This document shows positions 32,615 to 44,094 of a DNA stretch of 64,000 nt, piece by piece (position 1 is the stretch's first letter; every line of letters begins with the position of its first letter). The position numbers and the translations under genes are program-made. A model generated the notes under the pieces. It searched no databases. It saw only the letters and a program-made list of their open reading frames with translations, and was not told the origin of the DNA. Source of the stretch: an uncultured beta proteobacterium (GTDB lineage Bacteria; Pseudomonadota; Gammaproteobacteria; Burkholderiales; Casimicrobiaceae); contig CAWHFL010000011.1 of the NCBI GenBank assembly GCA_963828665.1, forward strand, positions 156,550-220,549, written 5' to 3'.

Positions 32615-34099
32615 CTACTTCGCCAGCGCGACGAGCCCGGCCATGTCGATCTGCTGGATCGCGCCCTGCAAGGTGGCGGCGTCGACGCCGTTGCCGCGCA
32701 CCGCGACATTGAAACGCTCAGCAAGAATGATGCTGATCTCGCCGTTTTTCGCGCGGCGATCGTAGCGCTCGTGGACGATCTGACCGTTGACCTTGCTCGT
32801 CCTCTCATAGCCGGTGTCGGTTTCTTTTTCCATGCTGGGGTCGAATCGGGACGCGAGCCCGGCCAGTCCCGCCAGCGACCCCATGTCGGAAATATCGACG
32901 TTCATCGATGCGCCGGCGCCGTCGGTATAGCGCGCGGTCGCGCTCGAACCCTTGATGCCCATCGCCTCGCCGCTTTGGCCGGTGGCTTCGACGCGTTTCA
33001 TCCCGGCCAGCGTTTCGGGCAGCATTTCCCTGAGCTTGCGGAAGTCGACCGGCTGCACATCCTTGCCGCCGGCTACGATGGCGCCGACCGCGTTCAGGGC
33101 AGCGGTCATGTCGGCGCTCGTCTTGGAATCAGGCGCAGGATGGGCGGTTGCCTTCTGGGCATCTTCGCCGATCTTCTGCAACTGCGACAGCGCCGCGCTG
33201 ACCCGCGCCTTGTCGGCGTCGGACTTTGCGCCGAATATGCCGGAGATCATCCCGCTGGCGTCGGTTGCCGCGGCGCCGCCATCCGGAGCGCCGAGCCGCC
33301 CCATCGCGCCTAGCCCCGCCAGACCCAGCCCCGCCACGGCGCAGCTGCTCAGGATCCCGATGACGACCGAAACGACGATCGCGCACAGGATCAGCACGAT
33401 CGTGTAGCCGGCCGATTTCTCCTTCGGGCAACGCATCAGTACCGGCAAGCCCGCATAGAGCAGGTACAGCCCATAGCAACCGGCCAGCAGCGCGAGCATG
33501 CCCAGGGCGGGAACGAGCTGCAGAATGCCGGCGACCCATGCCGGCGTGTAGCTGTAGGCGGTCAGCTTGAGCGCGCGGAGCCGATCGCGCTGGCCGCCGA
33601 AGCTCGGTGCCAGCATGTCGACCAGCCAGGCGATGACGAACACGCTGACGAACGACAGCAGGTAGCCGAGCAGCGCCGTCGCTGCGCCGGCGACGACGCC
33701 GATGCGGATGTGGCCGAGCAATGGAACGTTGTAGCCGATGACCGTGTGGCCGATGAATCCCGCGATGGCGCCGATCGCGGCCAGCGGGGCGACATAGCGG
33801 CCGTAGATCGCGCCCGCAGACGAGGGCTCGGCGGCAATGACCGGCCATTCCGCCGATGGCGTAAGGAGGATCGCCTTGATGCGCCCGACCAGGCCCGCGC
33901 CGGCTTCACCGGCGGACCTCGGCCCGGGGACACCAGCCTCGAAGCCCGGCTGCGGCGTGGGTCCTGACACCGATTCCGCCTCACTCGCCGCTGTGGCGGG
34001 AGGCGCGGGGGCGGTTGGCGCCACGACCACCGGGGCGCCGCAGTGCGGGCAGAACTTCATCCCCTCGGCGACGAGCTGACCGCACTGGGCACAAAACAT
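32615..34099 (-). CDS. Zn-ribbon / Yip1-like multipass membrane protein with an uncharacterised C-terminal soluble domain
   Basis: MFCAQCGQLVAEGMKFCPHCGAP (CxxC-x10-CxxC), a Pro/Ala linker, about five hydrophobic helices, then ~220 aa soluble. GGAGA lies upstream of ATG 34099. Confidence 0.65.
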   Translation of the reverse strand: MFCAQCGQLVAEGMKFCPHCGAPVVVAPTAPAPPATAASEAESVSGPTPQPGFEAGVPGPRSAGEAGAGLVGRIKAILLTPSAEWPVIAAEPSSAGAIYGRYVAPLAAIGAIAGFIGHTVIGYNVPLLGHIRIGVVAGAATALLGYLLSFVSVFVIAWLVDMLAPSFGGQRDRLRALKLTAYSYTPAWVAGILQLVPALGMLALLAGCYGLYLLYAGLPVLMRCPKEKSAGYTIVLILCAIVVSVVIGILSSCAVAGLGLAGLGAMGRLGAPDGGAAATDASGMISGIFGAKSDADKARVSAALSQLQKIGEDAQKATAHPAPDSKTSADMTAALNAVGAIVAGGKDVQPVDFRKLREMLPETLAGMKRVEATGQSGEAMGIKGSSATARYTDGAGASMNVDISDMGSLAGLAGLASRFDPSMEKETDTGYERTSKVNGQIVHERYDRRAKNGEISIILAERFNVAVRGNGVDAATLQGAIQQIDMAGLVALAK

Positions 34100-34486
34100 C
34101 AATCTCTCCGGCGCTTGAGGTGGACGCGATTGTGCACTGGCTGGGCAGGCGCTTCAATGTGCGCAACCCGGACGCAAATGACGGTGCGCGGCACCGCGGC
34201 TTTGCCCGGACGTTCTGCCAAAGGATCGTTCGGGCGCACCAGGCCGTTCTTGAGGTGAGTGGTTACTTCCGCTCTATGTCACTGCGGCAAAGATCACCGT
34301 CGCTATCCGGCGACACCCACCCTGGGCCGCAGGCATTCCAGTCCCTTCTGTACAACACACATCGGCTCTCGGTACGATAATTGCATCTGCAGCACAGCGT
34401 ATGATGGCAACCCCGGACGCGCCGAGGGTCCGCGGCGCCAGGGGTAGCGCGCGGAAGAACGCCTGTAAGCGACCGGCACGGAGGAA

Positions 34487-34759
34487 GTGATGACGCGTTT
34501 TGGCTTCAACATTCGCACGCGCAGCGGCCAGCGGGTCGACAACATCTGCATCATGGCGGCGAAACGCGAAGACGCCGAACGGCGCCTGCGGCAGATGTAC
34601 CACCACTGCCAGGTCATCAGCTGCAACAGCGAGTCGGTCCGTCGGAGCGATCCGATGGACATCGAAGGCGTCATCAGTATCATCAGCAACACCGACGCCG
34701 TCGCCATGGGCGTGCCAACGATCGCACGTTCGATGCTACGCAAGTCCGGCAGTCACTAG
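34487..34759 (+). CDS. Hypothetical small protein (90 aa)
   Basis: GGAGGAA Shine-Dalgarno 4-5 nt upstream of the ATG. Composition is non-repetitive (MMTRFGFNIRTRSGQRVDNICIMAAKREDAERRLRQMYHHCQVI). I recognise no family. Confidence 0.4.
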   Translation: MMTRFGFNIRTRSGQRVDNICIMAAKREDAERRLRQMYHHCQVISCNSESVRRSDPMDIEGVISIISNTDAVAMGVPTIARSMLRKSGSH

Positions 34760-35497
34760 CTCGTCGACCAATGCCCTGTAGTCGCGCGCGCCGGTGCTCG
34801 TCGGCGCGTAGCGGAACACGTCGAGCTGCCGCGCCGGGCTCTCCGCGAGACTTACGTTTTCGGCAATCCGGGTCGCGCAGATTTCCTCGGGGCGAAACGC
34901 CATCGCCATCAGATCTGCCACTTCCGAGCTCATCTTGCGGCGCGCATCGAATCGCGTCAGCAAGTAGCGTCGCGGCAGGCGCGCCTTAAACACCGGCTCC
35001 AGCGCGTTGAGCGCGCGTTCGACTTGTTGGGCGCCCTGCAGCGCCAGGTAGTCGGCGGACACCGGTATCACCACCAGATCGCAGGCGAAAATCGCGTTCA
35101 GCGACAGCACACCCAGCAACGGGCAGCAGTCGATGACGACCGGCCCGGGCGCGACACCGGGCACACGCAGTGCGGTGCGCAGTCGGGTCACCACGTTGAC
35201 GCCCTTGCCCAGCATTGTGTCGAGCTTGGACAAATCGAGGTGGCCCGGACACACCATGACGCCACTGGCCGCGATTTCGGTGATGTCGGCAAGCGGGCGT
35301 TGGCGCACGAAAAACGAATAGACCGAATCGTCGGCCAGCCGCGGGCGCACGCCGAATATGCCGGACAGGTGCGTCTGCGGATCGAGGTCGATGGCGAGCG
35401 GGCGCTGCTTGCGCTGCGCAAGACCCGCCAGCAGGTTGAGCGCGGTCGTCGTCTTGCCGACGCCGCCTTTCTGGTTGAACACGGCAATGACCGTCAT
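34736..35497 (-). CDS. Orphan ParA/MinD-like ATPase
   Basis: 253 aa with deviant Walker [23 protein letters not shown]. This is a second ParA paralog in the window, with no adjacent ParB. Confidence 0.85.
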   Translation of the reverse strand: MTVIAVFNQKGGVGKTTTALNLLAGLAQRKQRPLAIDLDPQTHLSGIFGVRPRLADDSVYSFFVRQRPLADITEIAASGVMVCPGHLDLSKLDTMLGKGVNVVTRLRTALRVPGVAPGPVVIDCCPLLGVLSLNAIFACDLVVIPVSADYLALQGAQQVERALNALEPVFKARLPRRYLLTRFDARRKMSSEVADLMAMAFRPEEICATRIAENVSLAESPARQLDVFRYAPTSTGARDYRALVDELVTAGLA

Positions 35498-35673
35498 TGC
35501 GGATGCTTGACTGATGCAAAGGTTTTCGAAACGGTGGTCGGCGCCGCGGCGCGCGACTTAAGATCGCGCGGTATGCGCGGCATTTTCGCACGGTTCGCGC
35601 GCGAAGCGCGACACGTATGGCCGGGGAGCGCAGTGCCGGTAGCCCGAGCAAAAATGCGATAATTCACGCCCTG

Positions 35674-37044
35674 ATGCCATCGTCGCTCCAAATCGCGATT
35701 CTCGCCGCCGGACGTGGCAAGCGCATGCGCTCGGCGTTGCCCAAGGTGCTGCAGCCGCTCGGCGGCCGGCCGTTGCTCGCGCATGTGCTGTCGACTGCGC
35801 GCAAGCTCGAGCCTCGAGCGATCTGCGTCGTCGACGGCGGCGGCGAGGTGCGCGAGCGCTTCGCCGACGCCGACCTCACCTGGGCGCGGCAGGATCCGCC
35901 GCGCGGCACCGGCGATGGCTTGCGGTGTGCGCTGACAGGACTGGGCCCCGACGGCGTCACATTGGTGCTGTTCGGCGCCGATCCGCTGGCGCGGGTCGAG
36001 ACGCTGCGGCAGGTCGCCGAGCGGGCGCAGGAAGGCATTCTTTCGCTGCTGACCGTCGAGCTCGACGATCCGACCGGTTACGGGCGCATCGTGCGCGGCG
36101 TCGACGGCAAGGTCGCGGCGATTGTCGAGCACAAGGACGCGACGCCGGAACAGCGAGCGATCAGAGAGATCAATACCGGCATCATGGCGGCACCCACGGC
36201 CGCGTTCGCGCGCTGGCTGCCGAGGATCGACAACCGCAATGCCGGCGGCGAATACTATCTGACCGACGTGATCGCGATGGCCGTCGCCGACGGCGTGCCG
36301 GTCGAAACGACTCATCCGGCCAGCGCCGACGAGACGCTGGGCATCAACAGCAAGCGCGACCTGGCGCAGCTCGAGCGGATCTATCAGCGTGCGCAGGCCG
36401 ACGCGCTGCTCGACGCCGCAGTGACTCTGGCCGACCCGGCGCGGATCGATGTGCGCGGCACGCTGGCGTGCGGGAGCGACGTGACGATCGATGTCGGCTG
36501 CATCTTCGAAGGCGACGTCGTCCTTGGCGATGCGGTCAGCATCGGCGCGTACAGCATCCTCAGGGACGCCAGCGTCGGCGCGGCGACGGCGATTGCACCG
36601 TATTCGCATGTCGACGGCGCCGCCATCGGCGCGCGGTGCCGCATCGGGCCGTACGCACGCATCCGTCCCGGCACGAACCTCGCCGATGAGGTCCACATCG
36701 GCAACTTCGTCGAGGTGAAGGCGAGCAACCTCGGCGAGCGCAGCAAAGCGAACCACCTGGCCTACGTGGGCGATTCGACCGTCGGCCGCGACGTCAACAT
36801 CGGCGCGGGCACGATCACCTGCAACTACGATGGCGTGAACAAGCATCGCACGGTGATCGAGGACGACGTCCATATCGGGTCCGACACGCAACTGGTGGCC
36901 CCCGTGACGATCGGCCGCGGGGCTACGATAGGCGCCGGCACGACCGTATGGCGCGACGTCGAGCCTGGGGTTCTTGTTTTCAACCAGAAAACGCAGGCCA
37001 GCAAGGCCGATTATCAGCGGCCACGCAAAAAAATCAAGGAATAG
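35674..37044 (+). CDS. glmU: Bifunctional UDP-N-acetylglucosamine diphosphorylase / GlcN-1-P acetyltransferase
   Basis: [27 protein letters not shown] and C-terminal left-handed beta-helix hexapeptide repeats. 456 aa from ATG 35674. Confidence 0.95.
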
Positions 37045-37048
37045 CGCC

Positions 37049-38863
37049 ATGTGCGGCATCGTCGGCGCGGTTGCGCGCGATAACGTCGTTCCGATTCTGA
37101 TCGAGGGCATCCGTCGGCTCGAATACCGGGGCTACGACTCGACGGGTCTTGCGGTCATCAACGGCGGCCTGCATCGATTGGTGAGTACCGCACGCGTGGC
37201 CGATCTCGCGGCGCAGGCGAAGGCGACGAAGATCTCCGGGAGCACGGGCATTTCGCATACGCGCTGGGCGACGCACGGCGCGCCGACGTCGGCCAACGCG
37301 CATCCGCACGTCAGCAGCGGCGAGATCGCGGTCGTGCACAACGGCATCATCGAGAACTTCGAGCCGCTGCGCGCGCGGTTGCAGCAGCAGGGATACGCAT
37401 TCGTCACCCAGACCGACACCGAGGTCATCGCGCATCTGATCCATGCGCATTACGACGGCGACCTGCTGGCCGCGGTGGCCAAGGCGGTCGCTGAGTTCCA
37501 CGGAGCCTACGCGATCGCCGCGATGACCACGCGTGAGCCGGGTCGCGTCGTCGGCGCGCGGGCCGGCAGCCCGCTGCTGGTCGGCCTCGGCGAGCACGAT
37601 CACTTCCTCGCCTCGGACGCGAGCGCGCTGGCGCCCGTCACCAGGCGCGTCGTTTATCTCGAGGAAGGCGACATCGCCGACATCGGACGCGAGGGATACG
37701 CGATCTATGACGCCGCCGGCGTGCGCGTCGCGCGCGAAGTGGTGACGGTCAAGACTTCGGGCGACGCGGTCGAGCTCGGTCCGTACAGCCATTTCATGCA
37801 AAAGGAAATCTTCGAGCAACCGCGCGCGATCGCCGACACCTTGGAAAGCGTCGGCGGCATCGGCCCCGAGCTGTTCGGGCCCGCGGCGGCCGAAATCTTC
37901 GCCGGCGTCAACGAGGTTCGCGTGCTGGCCTGCGGCACCAGCTACTACTCGGGCATGGTCGCGCGGCTATGGCTCGAGGCCGTCGCCGGCATTCCGGCGC
38001 ACGCCGAGATCGCCAGCGAATACCGCTATCGCGACAGCGTGCCCAATCCCGACGCGCTGGTCGTCGTCATTTCGCAGTCCGGCGAGACGGCGGACACCTT
38101 GTCGGCACTCAAACACGCCAAGGCGCTGGGCCATCGCAATACGCTGGCCATCTGCAACGCTCCGACGAGCTCGATGGTGCGCCAGACGGCGCTTACCTAC
38201 CTGACGCGCGCCGGCGTCGAGATCGGCGTCGCCTCGACCAAGGCGTTCACCACGCAATTAACCGCGTTGTTCCTGCTGACGCTGACGCTGGCCAAGCAGC
38301 GTGGAAGGCTCGACGCCGCGCAGGAAGCGCGCTGGTTGCAGGGCTTGCGCCACCTGCCGGCGGCGATCCAGGCAGTGCTGGCGCTCGAGCCCTCGATCAT
38401 TGCCTGGGCCGAACGCTTCGCCAAGAAGGAGAACGCACTCTTCCTCGGGCGTGGCCTACACTACCCGATCGCGCTGGAAGGCGCGCTTAAGCTCAAGGAA
38501 ATTTCGTACATCCACGGTGAGGCGTATCCGGCCGGCGAGTTGAAGCACGGGCCGCTCGCGCTGGTCGACGCCAACATGCCGGTCGTGGCGATCGCGCCCA
38601 ACGACGCGCTTCTGGAAAAGCTCAAGTCGAACCTGCAGGAAGTGCGCGCCCGCGGCGGCGAGCTCTACGTTATCGCCGACGCTGACAGCCAGATCTCGTC
38701 GAGCGAAGGCGTGCACGTGTTGCGCCTGCCCGAGCACGCCGGGCTGCTGTCGCCGATCGTGCACACGATCCCGCTGCAGCTCCTCGCCTACCACACCGCC
38801 GTGCTACGCGGCACCGACGTCGACAAGCCGCGGAACCTGGCGAAGTCGGTCACCGTGGAGTGA
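37049..38863 (+). CDS. glmS: Glutamine--fructose-6-phosphate aminotransferase
   Basis: MCGIVGAV (N-terminal nucleophile Cys), SIS domains, and C-terminal [13 protein letters not shown]. Confidence 0.97.
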
Positions 38864-38961
38864 TCCAACGCCGTACCGCGGCTTGCGGTACAGGCTGCCT
38901 GAGCGAAGCGAACGGGTGCCCACGAGATGCTGGCTCGCGACCGTTCGCGATCGGCGCGCGC

Positions 38962-41259
38962 CTAGTAGTCCAGCCACTCCATCGGCGAGACCAGCGCGGA
39001 GCCTTTGATGGTCTCCAGCGTCTGCGTCAGCACGTCGATATTGTTGTCGAATGAGCCGTGCGTCGCCTGGATGGTGGCTCCCGTCTTCGTCGTGCGCACG
39101 TCGGGTGTGGTGACTGGAAACCCTCGCTGCGAGGCGCCGGTCGTTCCAGGCTTCCACTCCTGCCGCCACGCCGTCATCGACGCGACCTGCTCGTCGGCCC
39201 ATTGCTTCGGATCGAAGGCATTCGGCGTGATCGCGTTCTGCAAGCCCAGAATCGGCATTTTTCTCGAATCGTCCAGCGCGCGCGACACGAGATAAAGCAG
39301 CGACTTCCCGTAGAGCTGGACTTCGGGGGAAGGCAGGCCGTCAGCCTTCTCATTCGAGTCGCTCAGATAATGGAGCCGGAGGTCCTCGAGATTGAACAGC
39401 GACGTCGTTGCGACTTTGCCGTACGTCCCTACCGCGAACTGGACCGAGCACGCCGCGGCGTAGAGCGTGCACGAGCTGACCGTTGGCGCGTTTGGCCGCA
39501 GATCGTCCTTGGCCAGCCGGTCCAGCAGCCAACCTAGCAGGATCGATCCCGCCGAGTGCCCGACCAGATGGACTTCGATCGCGCGCCCGTCGGTGCGCAA
39601 GGCATCGCGCAACGCGATGAGCTTCTTGGCGAGCAGGTCGAGCGCGCGGCCACTCGACTCCGAAGCTGCCGCGTTGTCGCGCATCTCCGTCCACATGCCG
39701 CGGAACATCAGGTGGCTGGTCGCCTCGACCAGACGGTCGGCGCCTTCGCGCACCTCATCGGCGACGCCACCTGCCGGGAGCGGTCCGATTTCCGGCTGGC
39801 CCTTGAAGTAATCCTGGAATATGTCGAGCAGCGTTTCGACCGGCCCCGTCTTCCACGTCATGAACAAGGGATAGATGCCGTTGGCCGCGGCGTAGGGCGC
39901 CAGAACGCGGATGCGGCGAATCGATTCGTCCTCGCCATTCAATCCGCCGTGAGCATAGATCATCACCTTGGCAGGCTTGCCGGCGGGTTGCGTCGCGAAC
40001 CACCGCCGGGGCGTGTCGACGACGATCTTGGTTGCGTAAGGCTCGGGATCGATACCGACGCCGAAAGTCACATCCGATACCGTCAGCGCGCCGTCGTTGC
40101 CGCTGACCAGCGTATGCGCGTAGGCATCCGCGGTGCTCCACGGCTGATAGGCAGCATAGTCGTACAGATGGTCGATCGGCCACGGATCGTCGCTCGGGTT
40201 GGCGGGGTTCTTCGGTGTCTTCGCCTGCGTTCCAAGCGATTGGCCGGCCGACACGCGAAACCGCGACAGCGCCACGCGCGCATCCGACACCTCGACCGGG
40301 ACACCGAGCGCACACACCCAGGCATCGGTGCCGTGCTCGACCCAGTCTTCGTACGGCAGGACGCCGAAACCGCGCGCACCCCATAGCTCGCCCCACGAGT
40401 TCTGGACGACAAAGCCGATGGCGTTATAGCCGACCAGCGCGAAGGCGTGCCCGCCCCACGACTTGGGATCCTTCGCCGTTCCGATGATGGGCAGCGACTC
40501 GTGCGATTGAGGCAGTGGTCGCTTTTTCGTTGCGAGCAGGCGGTCCCAGCCGTCGTGCACGTTCGCCGAGACGAAGACGGCGCCGACGTCGTTGAGCGCT
40601 GCCTGCAGATCGACGACCGACGCCTTGTCGACCCGGTAGTAGACGCCGAGCGGCCGGTTCGCGGCGTCGCGTTCCCATCCCCGCTTCGGCGACTGGAAAA
40701 TCGGCTTGCCTGTGCGGTCGAGCGCATAAGGCCATATCGGCTCAGTACAGACGCCGTGCTTGTTCCAGCCCTTGAGCGCGCCGCGGCAACTCGAACCCTC
40801 GTAGTCGACGCCGGGCCATTCGTCGTAGCGTCGCGCGAGCTCGTAGAACATCCGCGGGCTGACCGACACGAACGATTCCCTGGACCTGGACTCGACGTGA
40901 CGAACCCAGCGCAGGTAGTTGGCCACGCAGGTCAGGCCGAAACCCGTGCATGCGCCCTCGGTACCCTGGTCGCGGACCAGGCCGGCCTGAATGTAGCCTT
41001 TCAGATTCTGCGCGATGACGGCATCGGACGGCCAGCGCGGCGCGAGCGAACGCAACGGGGGACGATAGGGAAGGTCGCGAAAATCCAAGCGGTCCGGTCG
41101 CGCGTCGAGCACGCGACCGCTGAATCGGATCGCCGCGGCGTCACGCGAGGTTCGAGTCGCGACTTCGTCGGAGCGGGACCGCTGAGCTGACCGGCGCTCC
41201 TTCGCCCGCGGTCCGCGCTTCGCGGCGACTCCGGCCTTGTGGGTCTTGGTGTCCGCCAT
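38962..41259 (-). CDS. Two-domain hydrolase: papain-like C1 cysteine peptidase fused to an alpha/beta hydrolase
   Basis: 765 aa from ATG 41259 (GGGAGA Shine-Dalgarno). C1 triad motifs are RDQGTEGACTGFG (Cys104), GGHAFALVGYN (His271) and VQNSWGELWG (Asn287). The C-terminal half has VMIYAHGGLNG and the nucleophile elbow LVGHSAGS (Ser569). The N-terminal 40 aa is Lys/Arg/Ala-rich. No signal peptide. Confidence 0.75.
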   Translation of the reverse strand: MADTKTHKAGVAAKRGPRAKERRSAQRSRSDEVATRTSRDAAAIRFSGRVLDARPDRLDFRDLPYRPPLRSLAPRWPSDAVIAQNLKGYIQAGLVRDQGTEGACTGFGLTCVANYLRWVRHVESRSRESFVSVSPRMFYELARRYDEWPGVDYEGSSCRGALKGWNKHGVCTEPIWPYALDRTGKPIFQSPKRGWERDAANRPLGVYYRVDKASVVDLQAALNDVGAVFVSANVHDGWDRLLATKKRPLPQSHESLPIIGTAKDPKSWGGHAFALVGYNAIGFVVQNSWGELWGARGFGVLPYEDWVEHGTDAWVCALGVPVEVSDARVALSRFRVSAGQSLGTQAKTPKNPANPSDDPWPIDHLYDYAAYQPWSTADAYAHTLVSGNDGALTVSDVTFGVGIDPEPYATKIVVDTPRRWFATQPAGKPAKVMIYAHGGLNGEDESIRRIRVLAPYAAANGIYPLFMTWKTGPVETLLDIFQDYFKGQPEIGPLPAGGVADEVREGADRLVEATSHLMFRGMWTEMRDNAAASESSGRALDLLAKKLIALRDALRTDGRAIEVHLVGHSAGSILLGWLLDRLAKDDLRPNAPTVSSCTLYAAACSVQFAVGTYGKVATTSLFNLEDLRLHYLSDSNEKADGLPSPEVQLYGKSLLYLVSRALDDSRKMPILGLQNAITPNAFDPKQWADEQVASMTAWRQEWKPGTTGASQRGFPVTTPDVRTTKTGATIQATHGSFDNNIDVLTQTLETIKGSALVSPMEWLDY

Positions 41260-41379
41260 GAGGGTCTCCCTATGCTGCGCTAAGGACTGCGGCAACCGCC
41301 CGATTAGTGAACTACAACCCGATGGAGGACGCAAGAGAGGATGCCCTCCTGCCGAGCTGATTTTGGGTGTCCGGCGGGC

Positions 41380-41391
41380 GTGAATATTCAC
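41380..41391. repeat. Perfect 12-bp palindrome GTGAATATTCAC in the divergent island promoter region
   Basis: Read directly from the sequence. It is AT-rich relative to its surroundings and lies between the peptidase gene (start 41259) and the 2-TM gene (start 41584). Confidence 0.8.
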
Positions 41392-41583
41392 CTTGCGCTG
41401 GCGACTCGCCGGCATTATTGTCACCTACAACGCGTCGCGGGACGAAGGGGCGGGAAGTTTGCTTCGGCGCGTTTACGACCCGCCTTAATGCGAGTCCGGC
41501 GCGGCACGGGTCAACCGTTCGATCGCTGTTCAGATGCGGCGCGCAGGCACCCGAGCGCTGCGCGTCGACGGGAGGATCACAGC

Positions 41584-42186
41584 GTGGGCACTTTCGATTT
41601 CGTCGTCGTACTCGCCGGCTTGTGCGGACTCCTCATGGTTCTCGGAGGACTGCTGCTCTTCTACAAAGGGATCATCACTTTGCAGCAGGTCAGCGACAAG
41701 CCGGACGCCGTGACCTTCGAGTTTCAGCGCGTGCTGAAGATCCAGTCACGGTATCCCGCTTACGGGTTCTTCATCTTCGGGCTTGCATTCATTACGCTGG
41801 CCGCGTTCTATGGACGCCCCGACCCGCAGCCTACGATCACGCTGTCCGGGTCGGTCGAAAATGTCGTCGATCCCCAAGCGGCACGCGTCGTGGTTCAGTT
41901 GCCCCTTTGGGATACGAACCTCAATGTCGACGGGCGAGTGCGGAGGGACCTGCATCCGGATCTGAAACAGGTTCATATCGAGATCCGGTCGCCCGGCAAC
42001 GATCCTCCGATCTATACGACCGATGTCGACATCTCGGGGCAAGGGCGTGAGCTCACCGCTCAATTTGCGCCGGTAAAGCTCAAGAGGGTCGGGGCCCAGC
42101 CGCCGGCGGGAACCATCGAAAGCGTCCCCGCCGACGTCAAGCTGGCGTCTCCGGACACATCGACCGGATTCAAGGAAATGCCATGA
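41584..42186 (+). CDS. Hypothetical 2-TM membrane protein with a beta-rich C-terminal domain
   Basis: GTG 41584 is preceded by GGGAGGA. VGTFDFVVVLAGLCGLLMVLGGLLLFY and YGFFIFGLAFITLAAFY are hydrophobic helices. The 281-aa track ORF was trimmed. Confidence 0.55.
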   Translation: MGTFDFVVVLAGLCGLLMVLGGLLLFYKGIITLQQVSDKPDAVTFEFQRVLKIQSRYPAYGFFIFGLAFITLAAFYGRPDPQPTITLSGSVENVVDPQAARVVVQLPLWDTNLNVDGRVRRDLHPDLKQVHIEIRSPGNDPPIYTTDVDISGQGRELTAQFAPVKLKRVGAQPPAGTIESVPADVKLASPDTSTGFKEMP

Positions 42187-42518
42187 AGAAACTGGCTGAC
42201 GTACTGATCGCGTCACTCGCGCTTACCTTGGCGGTTGCGTTCCTGCCGATGGGAACGGCCGCCGCGAGCACCGTACAGGGCAGAGTCGCCTACCAGAATG
42301 GAACACCGATTCCGGGCATCACTGTCTATCTCGTGCATCCCAGCGCGGGACGCAGCGCCCCGGTGACCACTGATTCGGATGGCCGATTTCTGATATCCAG
42401 CGTGCCGCCGCAGCAGACGCCGTTTTACGTCGAGGTCTACTGGGGCCGTACGCTGAAGTACCGCAAGGCCCTCAGTGTGACGGCGCCTCGCGTCGCCGTT
42501 CCGGACATTCTGCTCTAG
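42183..42518 (+). CDS. Exported carboxypeptidase-regulatory-like (CarboxypepD_reg) beta-sandwich protein
   Basis: Signal peptide MKKLADVLIASLALTLAVAFLPMGTAAA, then GRVAYQNGTPIPGITVYL...TTDSDGRFLISSVPP...YVEVY. Shows ATGA overlap with the upstream gene and an AAGGAAA Shine-Dalgarno. Confidence 0.6.
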   Translation: MKKLADVLIASLALTLAVAFLPMGTAAASTVQGRVAYQNGTPIPGITVYLVHPSAGRSAPVTTDSDGRFLISSVPPQQTPFYVEVYWGRTLKYRKALSVTAPRVAVPDILL

Positions 42519-42618
42519 CGAGCGAGCCCGGTGCAGGCCGTCGCGATCCGAGACGGCTAACGCACGCGGCCCCGCCTTTCCCAGGGTACCCGGAACGTAA
42601 CGCAAGGAGCCTTTCGCC

Positions 42619-44094
42619 ATGGTCGAGAAAACGACTGCCCCGAAGCGCACCGCACGGCGTGCGAGCAAACGCGCGTCTCCCGCCACGGTGCTGGTATGGC
42701 AAGACGATCCGATGTCCGGCATGCCCGCGATTTCGCGTCCGGTTCCCAAGCTCGCGAAGCCACCGCTCAAGTACAAATTCAAGGGCGCCACGGTCAAGCC
42801 GGGCGTCTACGCGCAGGGCACGCCGCAATTCCGTTATTGGACTGCCGCCGAGGCCCTGCGACGCGGCGGCGACTTCTGGGCGCCGCTGCTCGGCGTCAAG
42901 CACTGGCAACCTGGCGCGGTTCTTCCGGTAAGCCTCGATAAGGGGGTCGACCTCAACGCCTATTACGATCGCTCCGAGCTCGCTTTCTTCCATGAGGCGG
43001 TGGGCGGGAAGACGATCTACTCCGGCGAGAGTCCAGACGTCGTGTGTCACGAAATGGGACACGCGTGTCTCGACGCCCACCGGCCGGAGCTGTTCGACGC
43101 GCCTTTCATCGAGGCCGGCGCATTTCACGAATCCTTCGGCGACATGAGCGCGATTCTCTCGGCGCTGCAATTGCCAAGCGTCCGGCAGTCGGTGCTGGGC
43201 GCCGTGAAGAGCTACAAGGCCTCCTTTGTTTCCCGCTGCGCCGAGCAACTCGGCTGGGCGATTCGTCAGGTCGCCGCACCCGCGGTCGATCCGGACTGTC
43301 TTCGCAACGCCTACAACGCGTTCAAGTACGTCGACCCGCAAACCTTGCCGGACGACGCTCCAGCCACCAAATTGTGCGCGGAGGTTCATTCGTTTTCGCG
43401 CATATTCACCGGAGCGTTTTACGAAATACTGTCCGGCATGCTGAAGATCCGGTCCGGCAAGCCGGCGCAGGCAGACCTCGCGGCGGTCGCCGGTGATTTT
43501 GCTCAGCTCCTGATGGATGCCACGGCGGCCGCGCCGGTGCAACCCAATTATTTTTCGCAAGTCGCGGCGCACATCATCGACGCCGACACCGCCCGCTTTT
43601 CGGGCAAGTATCGCGCGGCGCTGATCAAGACTTTTGTCGGTCGCCTCATCGTGCCCGAAACCGCAGTGCACGCGCTTGCTGCATCCAAGCGCGCGCCCGC
43701 AAAGCGCGCGGTTCGGACGGCAGCCTTAGCGGAAAGAGCGGCGAAGCCGCAGTCGCACAAGATCGCGATGAATACCAAGGAATTCGGCTTGCCGAACAAA
43801 CCGTTCGTGGTCATCGCGCCGCTCGACCAGAAACCCTTCCTGCTGGCGGCGGCGGGATTGGCGAACCGGCAAGCCGGGCCGGACGTCGTGCAGCAGGCCA
43901 CGCATCGCTTCGTGAAAATGCTTTTTGCCCACGACCGGGTCGATACCGCACCGGCAGCGAAAAAACTGTCGGTGACGGCCAGCACGCCGAGAGACAAGCT
44001 CCGCAAGACCCACGTCCTGATCCCATCGAAGGACGGACTGAAGCTCACGCGCCGCTTGTTCCACTGTGGATGCGAGGTCGAGCGGAGGCCCTGA
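42619..44094 (+). CDS. Thermolysin-like (M4-type gluzincin) metallopeptidase homolog lacking signal peptide and propeptide
   Basis: NAYYDRSELAFFHEAVGG...DVVCHEMGHACLD...GAFHESFGD parallels thermolysin NAFWNGSEMVYGDG...DVVAHELTHAVTD...GAINEAISD. HEMGH is at 43048-43062. AAGGAG lies 9 nt upstream of the ATG. The N-terminus is basic. Confidence 0.7.
   Translation: MVEKTTAPKRTARRASKRASPATVLVWQDDPMSGMPAISRPVPKLAKPPLKYKFKGATVKPGVYAQGTPQFRYWTAAEALRRGGDFWAPLLGVKHWQPGAVLPVSLDKGVDLNAYYDRSELAFFHEAVGGKTIYSGESPDVVCHEMGHACLDAHRPELFDAPFIEAGAFHESFGDMSAILSALQLPSVRQSVLGAVKSYKASFVSRCAEQLGWAIRQVAAPAVDPDCLRNAYNAFKYVDPQTLPDDAPATKLCAEVHSFSRIFTGAFYEILSGMLKIRSGKPAQADLAAVAGDFAQLLMDATAAAPVQPNYFSQVAAHIIDADTARFSGKYRAALIKTFVGRLIVPETAVHALAASKRAPAKRAVRTAALAERAAKPQSHKIAMNTKEFGLPNKPFVVIAPLDQKPFLLAAAGLANRQAGPDVVQQATHRFVKMLFAHDRVDTAPAAKKLSVTASTPRDKLRKTHVLIPSKDGLKLTRRLFHCGCEVERRP

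Follow-up and report, generated by a model that had tools for sequence, protein, structure and literature searches.

The window analysed here is a stretch of 64,000 nucleotides from an uncultured beta proteobacterium of the Casimicrobiaceae (assembly GCA_963828665.1, contig CAWHFL010000011.1, positions 156,550 to 220,549). At positions 38962..41259 on its minus strand lies a complete coding sequence (CDS) of 765 amino acids plus stop codon, which encodes, in order, a basic tail, a C1 (papain-type) peptidase domain, a linker and an alpha/beta-hydrolase (ABH) module. In this protein, an intact papain-fold peptidase is permanently fused to an intact Ser-His-acid ABH. The name given by NCBI to the whole protein is ‘C1 family peptidase’ and the C-terminal half is unannotated.

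An initial annotation had proposed a single open reading frame (ORF) between these positions without naming the strand. The ORF is confirmed and is on the minus strand: the plus-strand frame contains stops throughout, while the reverse strand reads as 765 uninterrupted codons from an ATG at 41259..41257 to a stop codon at 38962..38964. The GC content at third codon positions (GC3) of the gene is 0.80, in a window of 65% GC. The ORF is not a chance one because of this GC3, because its Peptidase_C1 match lies above the gathering cut-off, and because a database search retrieves 6,497 proteins at E<=0.001. A Shine-Dalgarno-like GGGAGA can be read at 41265..41270 (minus strand), separated from the ATG by a 5-nt spacer; no sigma-70-like promoter was found within 38700..41700. 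A longer, GTG-initiated ORF extends to 41424, but homologues share the Met of the shorter frame as their start and have nothing that corresponds to its 55 extra residues. In Pfam, the C1 half is the only match in the 765 residues even at E<=1, with no further domains, and searches of the protein against NCBIfam and PADLOC return no match.

The protein opens with the Lys/Arg/Ala-rich tail described in the initial annotation (residues 1-47; 41119..41259, minus strand), which has 13 Lys or Arg and 10 Ala among its 47 residues. It is predicted to be disordered or weakly helical, with predicted local distance difference test (pLDDT) values of 40-58. In the alignment, its length varies among homologues and it is missing in P0034, P0067, P0086, and P0120. 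This variable tail could presumably be a pro-region resembling that of xylellain. The protein has no signal peptide, as had been noted before, and no transmembrane segment; the peak Kyte-Doolittle mean over 19 residues is 1.29, at the nucleophile strand of the hydrolase.

The peptidase and hydrolase domains

Structures were predicted with AlphaFold 2 (AF2). A first model, from 37 close homologues, gave the N-terminal domain a pLDDT of ~50. A second, from 81 diverse members, is a single two-domain fold with a mean pLDDT of 87.9 and a predicted template modelling (pTM) score of 0.87, in which the C1 domain is mostly at 90-97. All features below are on the minus strand.

The C1 domain spans residues 48-325 (40285..41118). 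It matches Pfam PF00112 (Peptidase_C1) at 22.3 bits against a cut-off of 20.7 over residues 95-298, and phrog_16701, a ‘peptidase’, at 1.1e-9. By sequence, the closest protein of solved structure is xylellain (3OIS; 1.4e-11). When the C1 half of the second model is searched with Foldseek, 3OIS is matched at 1.2e-13 with a TM score of 0.68 normalised to the target. Papain and cathepsins follow at 1e-9 to 1e-7, with papain 1ppn at 5.7e-8 and a TM score of 0.70. The papain-type catalytic set recognized in the initial annotation is present at the residues it named, i.e. Cys104 in QGTEGACTGFG, His271 in GGHAFALVGYN, and Asn287 and Trp289 in QNSWG. Catalytic Cys104 (40948..40950) is conserved family-wide in 198 of 199 members, and its partners Gln98 (40966..40968), His271 (40447..40449), and Asn287 (40399..40401) in 197 of 199, 206 of 208, and 210 of 210. 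These four residues follow the papain order and are invariant in 81 diverse full-length members. The domain also contains an N-terminal strand with an invariant DxxDxxD motif (D56, D59, D62). No prodomain of the I29 type was matched in the Pfam search, the short variable tail being all that precedes the domain. The N-terminal half is a C1 family member of the xylellain type, as judged from its profile match, catalytic set, and predicted two-lobe fold. In a separate observation, two plasmid matches (H33 from Roseivivax marinus and H35 from Paracoccus aminovorans) contain C1-like domains with 30-35% identity to residues ~55-320, in genes annotated as ‘trypsin-like peptidase domain-containing protein’. 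This suggests that C1 and trypsin double-protease fusions occur.

In the region of residues 326-424 (39988..40284), the alignment shows a low-complexity linker followed by the conserved motifs NPxDDPWPxDH and AYxHTLVxGNDG. The latter forms the beta-hairpin with which the hydrolase module begins. The hairpin is kept in protease-free and caspase-linked relatives: our own hidden Markov model (HMM) of this region matches stand-alone ABH proteins, and the equivalent motif H-[VA]-[IV]-N-L-R-x-G is found in P0259, P0272, and P0282.

The ABH core (residues 425-765; 38965..39987) is covered by no Pfam model. At E<=1, no Pfam ABH family matches the protein, Abhydrolase_3 included. Its pLDDT is mostly 85-99 except at an insert loop. 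The core belongs to the ABH superfamily because the nucleophile elbow stands at a strand end and is followed by the acid and then the His. In the predicted order of strands and helices, HGG follows beta3, GHSAG ends the strand 561-568, E637...D640 come after 627-632, and H734 is last. The motifs that the initial annotation assigned to this half (His437 in IYAHGGLNG, Ser569 in GHSAG, His734 in ATHGSF) are likewise where it located them. Nucleophile Ser569 (39553..39555), in the G-H-S-A-G elbow, is Ser in 261 of 262 members; by clade, it is conserved in 236 of 237 C1-linked and 106 of 106 non-C1 proteins. His734 (39058..39060), within T-H-G-S-F-D-N, is conserved in 238 of the 240 members aligned there and comes last in the ABH order, in keeping with the earlier suggestion that ATHGSF could supply the catalytic His. 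The candidates for the triad acid are Glu637...Asp640 (39340..39351): E637 is found in 237 of 237 C1-linked and 99 of 106 non-C1 members, and D640 in 236 of 237 and 104 of 106. Asp634 was rejected for this role, being present in 46 of 106 members of the non-C1 clade. We assign D640 (or E637) as the probable acid because these positions are conserved and D634 is variable.

His437-Gly438-Gly439 (39943..39951), after beta3, is the probable oxyanion-hole turn; H437 is conserved in 230 of 237 C1-linked and all 106 non-C1 members, and G439 in 236 of 237 and 105 of 106. Esterases of the hormone-sensitive-lipase type carry HGGG and GDSAG and are described by Pfam Abhydrolase_3. The HGG-type oxyanion motif of the initial annotation therefore stands as a conserved turn but not in the hormone-sensitive-lipase sense, given the lack of a match to Abhydrolase_3 or any other Pfam ABH family. 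At the other end of the domain, the protein terminates in E-W-L-D-Y (38965..38979, up to the stop codon; pLDDT 92-98), where, in the alignment of the close family, Y765 is at least 90% conserved and the four residues before it (E761, W762, L763, D764) do not vary. In ABH-caspase fusions, the strand equivalent to EWLDY is followed by a linker to the caspase domain.

The second model places a helical insert (residues 474-556; 39592..39840), made up of three helices (474-486, 498-532, and 539-556), between beta4 and the nucleophile strand. Loop 1 (residues 487-497; 39769..39801) and loop 2 (residues 533-538; 39646..39663) separate them. The sole low-confidence stretch of the domain, ~480-500 (pLDDT 58-64), falls in this insert.

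Foldseek searches with the first model gave acylaminoacyl peptidase 4hxg (2.4e-3) and an A. fulgidus lipase, 2zyh (2.8e-3), as the best non-papain matches, both with probabilities of 0.97-0.99. Monoglyceride lipases, cutinases, and FphH were also matched, with probabilities of ~0.5-0.95. E-values for these ABH matches were weak overall, at 2e-3 to 3e-2. Because of this, the predicted hydrolase fold, while clear, has no close solved relative. With the catalytic residues of both domains ~99% conserved across 200-260 members, neither half is a pseudo-enzyme.

Distribution, genomic setting, and other partners of the hydrolase

The initial annotation had suggested looking for the same fusion in other genomes. 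A scan of one genome per species found it in at least 591 species genomes. Carriers include Burkholderiales (Roseateles/Pelomonas, Variovorax, Ramlibacter, Hydrogenophaga), Casimicrobiaceae, Solimonas, Pseudomonas putida, and P. vranovensis, as well as Steroidobacteraceae, Acidobacteriota, Gemmatimonas, Nitrospirales, Magnetococcales, Desulfobulbus, and rhizobial chromids. Complete genomes are represented by the chromosome of Ramlibacter sp. MMS24-I3-19 and by rhizobial replicons. The best 120 database matches share 53-87% identity, and nearly all span 91% or more of the query, two being shorter fragments; all NCBI-named proteins among them are called ‘C1 family peptidase’. A filter-free phmmer search with residues 400-765 returned 1,517 cluster representatives. 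When the 150 best representatives at 50% identity were scanned with our own HMMs, both domains were detected in nearly all full-length members (650-770 aa).

Among the matches listed, the closest are from Casimicrobiaceae (81-87% identity). Identity is 56% to Acidobacteriota, 51% to Gemmatimonas, 52-53% to Pseudomonas, and 53-56% to other Burkholderiales. Since identity across phyla is as high as that within the order, these sequences indicate an accessory gene that has spread horizontally.

A phage origin was considered and rejected. A tblastn search of 50,697 phage records gave weak matches to the C1 domain alone and no full-length homologue, and the best 80 of at least 389 confirmed IMG/VR relatives match the C1 domain, never the fusion. 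A fold search of BFVD returned C1 peptidases and weak ABH and LysB matches. Xylellain-type C1 domains without the hydrolase are themselves frequent in viral contigs, including contigs of jumbo-phage size and from giant viruses (at least 389 IMG/VR relatives; L085-L164). This agrees with the horizontal acquisitions noted for xylellain-type peptidases (PMC10380794).

In the window, the gene is convergent with glmU-glmS and divergent from a small operon, and an ABC transporter is also a neighbour. Clustering of the ORFs in 84 genome loci and 26 loci of long variants revealed no conserved partner, immunity, or secretion gene beyond genus-level synteny. Synteny is stable within Roseateles/Pelomonas and within Steroidobacteraceae, a glyoxalase and SDR paralogues are the recurring neighbours at that level, and the neighbours in relatives include genes for aromatic catabolism, acyl-CoA dehydrogenases, and LysR/MarR regulators. 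Because no neighbour family recurs beyond genus level, PADLOC matches on 150 flanking proteins are scattered, and the phage records searched hold no full-length homologue, we conclude that this is a stand-alone cellular gene, without a partner, immunity gene, secretion gene, or defence island.

Downstream of the gene, 35617..38863 (+) encodes a glmU-like protein (NTP_transferase and Hexapep) and a glmS-like protein (GATase and SIS). A ParA/MinD-type ATPase gene lies at 34736..35497 (-) and a gene for a zinc-ribbon and Yip1 membrane protein at 32615..34102 (-). The divergent genes form a trio at 41341..44094 (+). The first product has two hydrophobic helices in an ORF from 41341, whose true start is probably later, as the counterpart gene called in L001 encodes 200 aa. 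The second (42183..42518) is a 111-aa CarboxypepD_reg protein with a signal peptide. The third (42619..44094), of 491 aa, has a HEMGH zincin motif and a Peptidase_M36 match below the Pfam cut-off. Membership of the trio in a system with the C1-ABH gene was set aside, since the trio is kept in the closest relatives alone (L001, L005, L006). Among the loci examined, two have a caspase (PF00656) gene within two genes of the C1-ABH gene, namely L013:1822-2781 (-) in an Acidobacteriota metagenome-assembled genome (MAG) and L081:2-646 (+) in a Binatia MAG. A phmmer search of the window and of a set of loci that included every C1-ABH locus found no gasdermin.

The hydrolase family also occurs outside the C1 fusion. 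Shared between C1-linked and non-C1 ABHs are the HGG, W469, D508, E512, W523, GHSAG, E637, D640, Y650-K-S, and H734 motifs. BLASTP aligns the window protein with the caspase-linked P0272 at an E-value of 6e-23. Our own HMM of the C-terminal domain scores 1e-25 to 1e-44 on the caspase-linked P0259, P0272, P0277, P0282, P0302, and P0319, and 3e-91 on the protease-free P0130. A search with the ABH region of P0259 alone, itself an Amidase_2-ABH-caspase protein, retrieved many ABH-caspase fusions (PF00656), Amidase_2-ABH proteins, shorter C1-ABH proteins, and stand-alone ABHs. Amidase_2, ABH, and caspase are encoded by three consecutive genes on three independent contigs (L251:5154-8088; also L252 and L253) and as a 994-aa fusion on plasmid pA of Kovacikia minuta (L250:5116-8100), and in a Caldilineaceae genome an Amidase_2 gene precedes an ABH-caspase gene (L254:5334-7599). 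Amidase_2 (of the peptidoglycan recognition protein type), ABH, and caspase thus recur together as a three-part module, one part of which recognises or cleaves peptidoglycan. At L245:6164-8725, 24 bases separate a bacterial gasdermin gene (PF26164, 270 aa) from the ABH-caspase fusion P0282 that follows it, with Peptidase_S8 and CarboxypepD_reg genes nearby. This locus looks like a gasdermin system whose protease carries the hydrolase domain.

Peptidoglycan-directed domains are also joined to the C1-ABH proteins themselves. Four of the five long variants examined (950-1,020 aa) have a signal-less N-terminal module, either PG_binding_1 and GH19 or a phage-lysozyme-like domain, ahead of the C1-ABH part; the fifth, P0218, has no Pfam match at its N-terminus, yet contains the GH19 sequence motif. 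Two long variants that were scanned match endolysin PHROGs (phrog_181 at 4.6e-23). In a metagenome scan seeded on PG_binding_1 and GH19, the module continues into C1-ABH in about half of 80 loci (L165-L244). Across such loci, this module lacks a signal peptide and occurs either as a stand-alone protein of ~270-300 aa or as the N-terminus of C1-ABH proteins of ~960-1,030 aa, examples of which are L174:9944-12841 and L187:9974-12847. The open frame in L178 is ~1,480 aa, with a putative extension of ~520 further residues upstream. Overall, the ABH family is recurrently coupled, by fusion or adjacency, to cysteine endopeptidases of two unrelated folds (C1 and caspase C14) and also to peptidoglycan-binding or -cleaving domains. 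DUF7379 may be another protease-linked partner domain. It precedes the ABH domain in P0335 and, at L255:9566-13776 (-), is part of a protein of at least 1,508 aa with CHAT protease and TPR-S, two genes from an ABH-caspase gene.

Proposed function and alternatives

Pairing of a cysteine protease with an ABH has precedent. According to Kaur et al. (2020, eLife, PMC7159879), an alpha/beta-hydrolase gene ‘always’ neighbours the caspase domains of NTP-dependent conflict systems. In Lysobacter capsici AZ78, LcCaspase cleaves LcHydrolase at R73 and R117, in both cases R|G (Evans et al. 2025, bioRxiv preprint, PMC12642450). That study describes LcHydrolase as a zymogen whose N- and C-fragments together are toxic in E. 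coli, with the N-terminus of the C-fragment forming part of a lid. By HHpred its nearest relatives are lipases and oligopeptidases, and its substrate was left open.

Several features suggest that the hydrolase described here probably belongs to the family of LcHydrolase, a kinship drawn from shared features rather than from alignment. In non-C1 relatives, an R|G pair (R 63%, G 50%) aligns with A496-G497 of loop 1 and ‘GGAR’ aligns with R538 in loop 2. The R|G of this clade falls ~10 residues past a conserved Asp, comparable to D64-R73 of LcHydrolase. In P0282, by our own count, two Arg are 44 residues apart, which is the R73/R117 spacing. The C1 clade has R-A-G-G at loop 1 (R 43%), with G, H, or R occurring opposite R538.

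Protease-ABH pairing is therefore known in kind, having been predicted in 2020 and tested for one caspase pair in 2025, while the papain-fold, single-chain, sensor-less form and its endolysin-bearing variants are undescribed in the literature searched. The search, on DUF900, Peptidase_C1 in phage defence, and ‘C1 family peptidase’ effectors, found no description of a C1-ABH fusion. The initial annotation had called the architecture unusual. This holds for the papain single-chain form, but not for the pairing of a protease with such a hydrolase.

By analogy with these pairs, the protein may be a cytoplasmic, single-chain, sensor-less, papain-fold version of a module in which a protease and a latent hydrolase bring about cell death. 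We favour this explanation tentatively, with somewhat less than even confidence. The C1 domain would license its own hydrolase domain, in cis or between protomers. This step is modelled on the caspase, which cuts its ABH at two sites flanking a ~44-residue segment. We propose that the insert at residues 474-556 is autoinhibitory and is where proteolytic licensing would take place, with cuts envisaged in the exposed loops at ~487-497 and 533-538, either side of the long helix 498-532. The freed hydrolase would then destroy an ester- or peptide-linked target, most plausibly a membrane lipid, and the cell would die, so that the protein would serve abortive infection or programmed death. Lysis might be finished by the PG_binding_1 and GH19 module in the ~1,000-aa variants, after the membrane is breached. 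Of the two suggestions of the initial annotation, a self-processing enzyme is the better-fitting one: homologues of this ABH are recurrently coupled to cysteine proteases and one caspase-coupled ABH is protease-activated (PMC12642450), which by analogy may extend to the C1 fusion.

A more far-reaching version is doubtful. In it, the family would be a widespread sensor-less suicide module on one polypeptide, in which a papain-fold protease, instead of a caspase, trypsin, or subtilisin, cuts an autoinhibitory helix from its own ABH and the membrane is attacked. Longer variants, which include a signal-less endolysin of their own (PG_binding_1-GH19, or in the caspase branch Amidase_2), would then digest the wall once the membrane is open and so act as complete holin-free lysis machines outside defence islands.

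Several observations weigh against a protease-licensed death module. No recognisable sensor domain was found in the protein by Pfam, NCBIfam, or PADLOC searches. Its neighbours are of a housekeeping type (glmU/glmS, ABC transporter), and a defence island is unsupported, as PADLOC gives scattered matches on 150 flanking proteins. Synteny within genera and high sequence conservation are unlike most defence genes. The window protein has no Arg in loop 1 (GPLPAGG), and its loop 2 reads SSGR|A instead of R|G. The kinship with LcHydrolase rests on size, the position of D...R|G, the 44-residue spacing, and the nearest folds, not on alignment. Many Arthrobacter ABH homologues stand alone beside TetR regulators with no protease nearby. 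Finally, L248, a candidate for a two-gene ABH and caspase arrangement, is probably a frameshifted fusion, its caspase ORF opening with the last strand of the hydrolase.

An alternative that we consider unlikely is an envelope-attacking lytic or antagonistic enzyme, in which protease and esterase/lipase work side by side on wall-linked proteins and lipids. Release would be through lysis, vesicles, or an unrecognised secretion route, and the variants with PG_binding_1 and GH19 or Amidase_2 would be full three-activity lysins, for which mycobacteriophage LysA together with the esterase LysB offers an analogue. The PG_binding_1 and GH19 domains of the ~960-1,030-aa variants, the Amidase_2 fused or adjacent in the caspase branch, and the presence of cutinase and LysB among the weak fold matches are all consistent with it, and the basic tail resembles the polycationic ends of some endolysins. 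However, that tail is absent from many homologues, the protein has no signal peptide or transmembrane segment, and no full-length homologue is found in the phage records searched. Holin, secretion, immunity, or phage genes are not conserved nearby in the 84 and 26 loci, and interbacterial toxins normally have an adjacent immunity gene and evolve faster. The two-activity effector suggested by the initial annotation is disfavoured on similar grounds, since a secretion signal, neighbouring immunity or secretion genes, and any conserved partner are all lacking.

It is likewise improbable that the protein is an ordinary cytoplasmic bifunctional catabolic enzyme, without any role in suicide or conflict, in which the peptidase and then the esterase act on a mixed peptide/ester substrate such as depsipeptides, lipopeptides, acylated peptides, or the coats of storage-polymer granules. 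Housekeeping and metabolic neighbours here and in relatives would fit such an enzyme, as would the stable synteny in Roseateles/Pelomonas and Steroidobacteraceae, the lack of a defence-island signal, the strong purifying selection (53-58% identity across orders), and the stand-alone ABH beside TetR regulators in Arthrobacter. Yet there is no conserved operon partner, transporter, or regulator to define a pathway, and the distribution is patchy and cross-phylum. The other partners of this ABH family are caspases, gasdermin, and peptidoglycan hydrolase domains rather than metabolic enzymes, and a papain-type endopeptidase left unregulated in the cytoplasm would be a hazard.

An artefact, be it a sequencing or assembly error that has merged two genes or a pseudo-enzyme with motifs out of register, both of which the initial annotation had allowed for, is virtually out of the question despite the weak C1 Pfam score (22.3 bits) and the lack of a C-terminal Pfam match: the fusion is uninterrupted in hundreds of independent assemblies, including complete genomes, the model of a single two-domain fold is confident (pTM 0.87), and the catalytic residues are strongly conserved.

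If the death-module reading is right, at least 590 species, from Burkholderiales, Pseudomonas, Solimonas, Steroidobacteraceae, rhizobia, Acidobacteriota, Gemmatimonadota, Nitrospirota, and others, would carry a compact protease-licensed death effector under the label ‘C1 family peptidase’. The papain fold would join the short list of protease folds that gate prokaryotic immune effectors. It would also follow that such modules can do without a fused sensor and can lie beyond defence islands, in places that present defence-finding tools overlook. A one-gene system is convenient for asking what the activated alpha/beta-hydrolase hydrolyses, the question left by the 2025 preprint, and the link to peptidoglycan domains offers a concrete hypothesis for how killing proceeds. 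If this reading is wrong, the protein is still a strongly conserved bifunctional hydrolase, and its C-terminal domain merits a separate family model.

Comparison with known systems

The closest counterparts are the ABH-caspase pairs. In both, a genetic link ties a cysteine endopeptidase to an ABH that has lipases and oligopeptidases as its nearest folds, and a helical segment with exposed loops directly precedes the nucleophile strand of the ABH. Relatives of the window ABH are themselves fused or adjacent to caspases and carry R|G at the first loop. In contrast, the protease of the window protein has a papain (C1) fold and is N-terminal in the same polypeptide, and the protein lacks a sensor (WD40/STAND/vWA-MoxR), a defence neighbourhood, and the Arg of loop 1.

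Taken separately, the two halves have different relatives. Xylellain of Xylella fastidiosa (3OIS) is the best sequence and structure match for residues ~55-306. Like xylellain and the ‘short bacterial xylellain-type’ C1A peptidases (PMC10380794), the window protein has no I29 prodomain, no signal peptide, and a short N-terminal extension. However, xylellain is a stand-alone enzyme, with 291 residues in the crystallised chain, and identity to it is ~25%; in the window protein, the C1 domain is followed by a 440-residue linker and hydrolase module. For the hydrolase, the sole Pfam ABH family reached by any relative is DUF900 (PF05990), which comprises rhizobial ABHs. P0198 passes its cut-off (22.3 bits against 20.5) and several relatives give sub-threshold matches around the nucleophile elbow (E 0.004-0.07), whereas the window protein has no match even at E<=1. 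For DUF900 proteins, a sheet of 11 strands and a putative lipoprotein signal have been described (PMC11878206). Judged from these matches, the relation is one of superfamily rather than of family membership.

Toxins that are secreted or contact-dependent, such as the Tle lipases of type VI secretion systems and polymorphic toxins, differ in that the window protein has no trafficking signal and its gene no adjacent immunity or secretion gene. Modular endolysins of Gram-negative phages resemble the ~1,000-aa variants, which open with a signal-less module of PG_binding_1 and GH19 or lysozyme type; the window protein lacks this module and the family was not found in the phage genomes searched. Bacterial gasdermin-protease systems offer a last parallel. 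The relative P0282 directly follows a PF26164 gene, a setting of proteolysis-gated cell death, but the presumed executioner in the protein described here would be the hydrolase itself.

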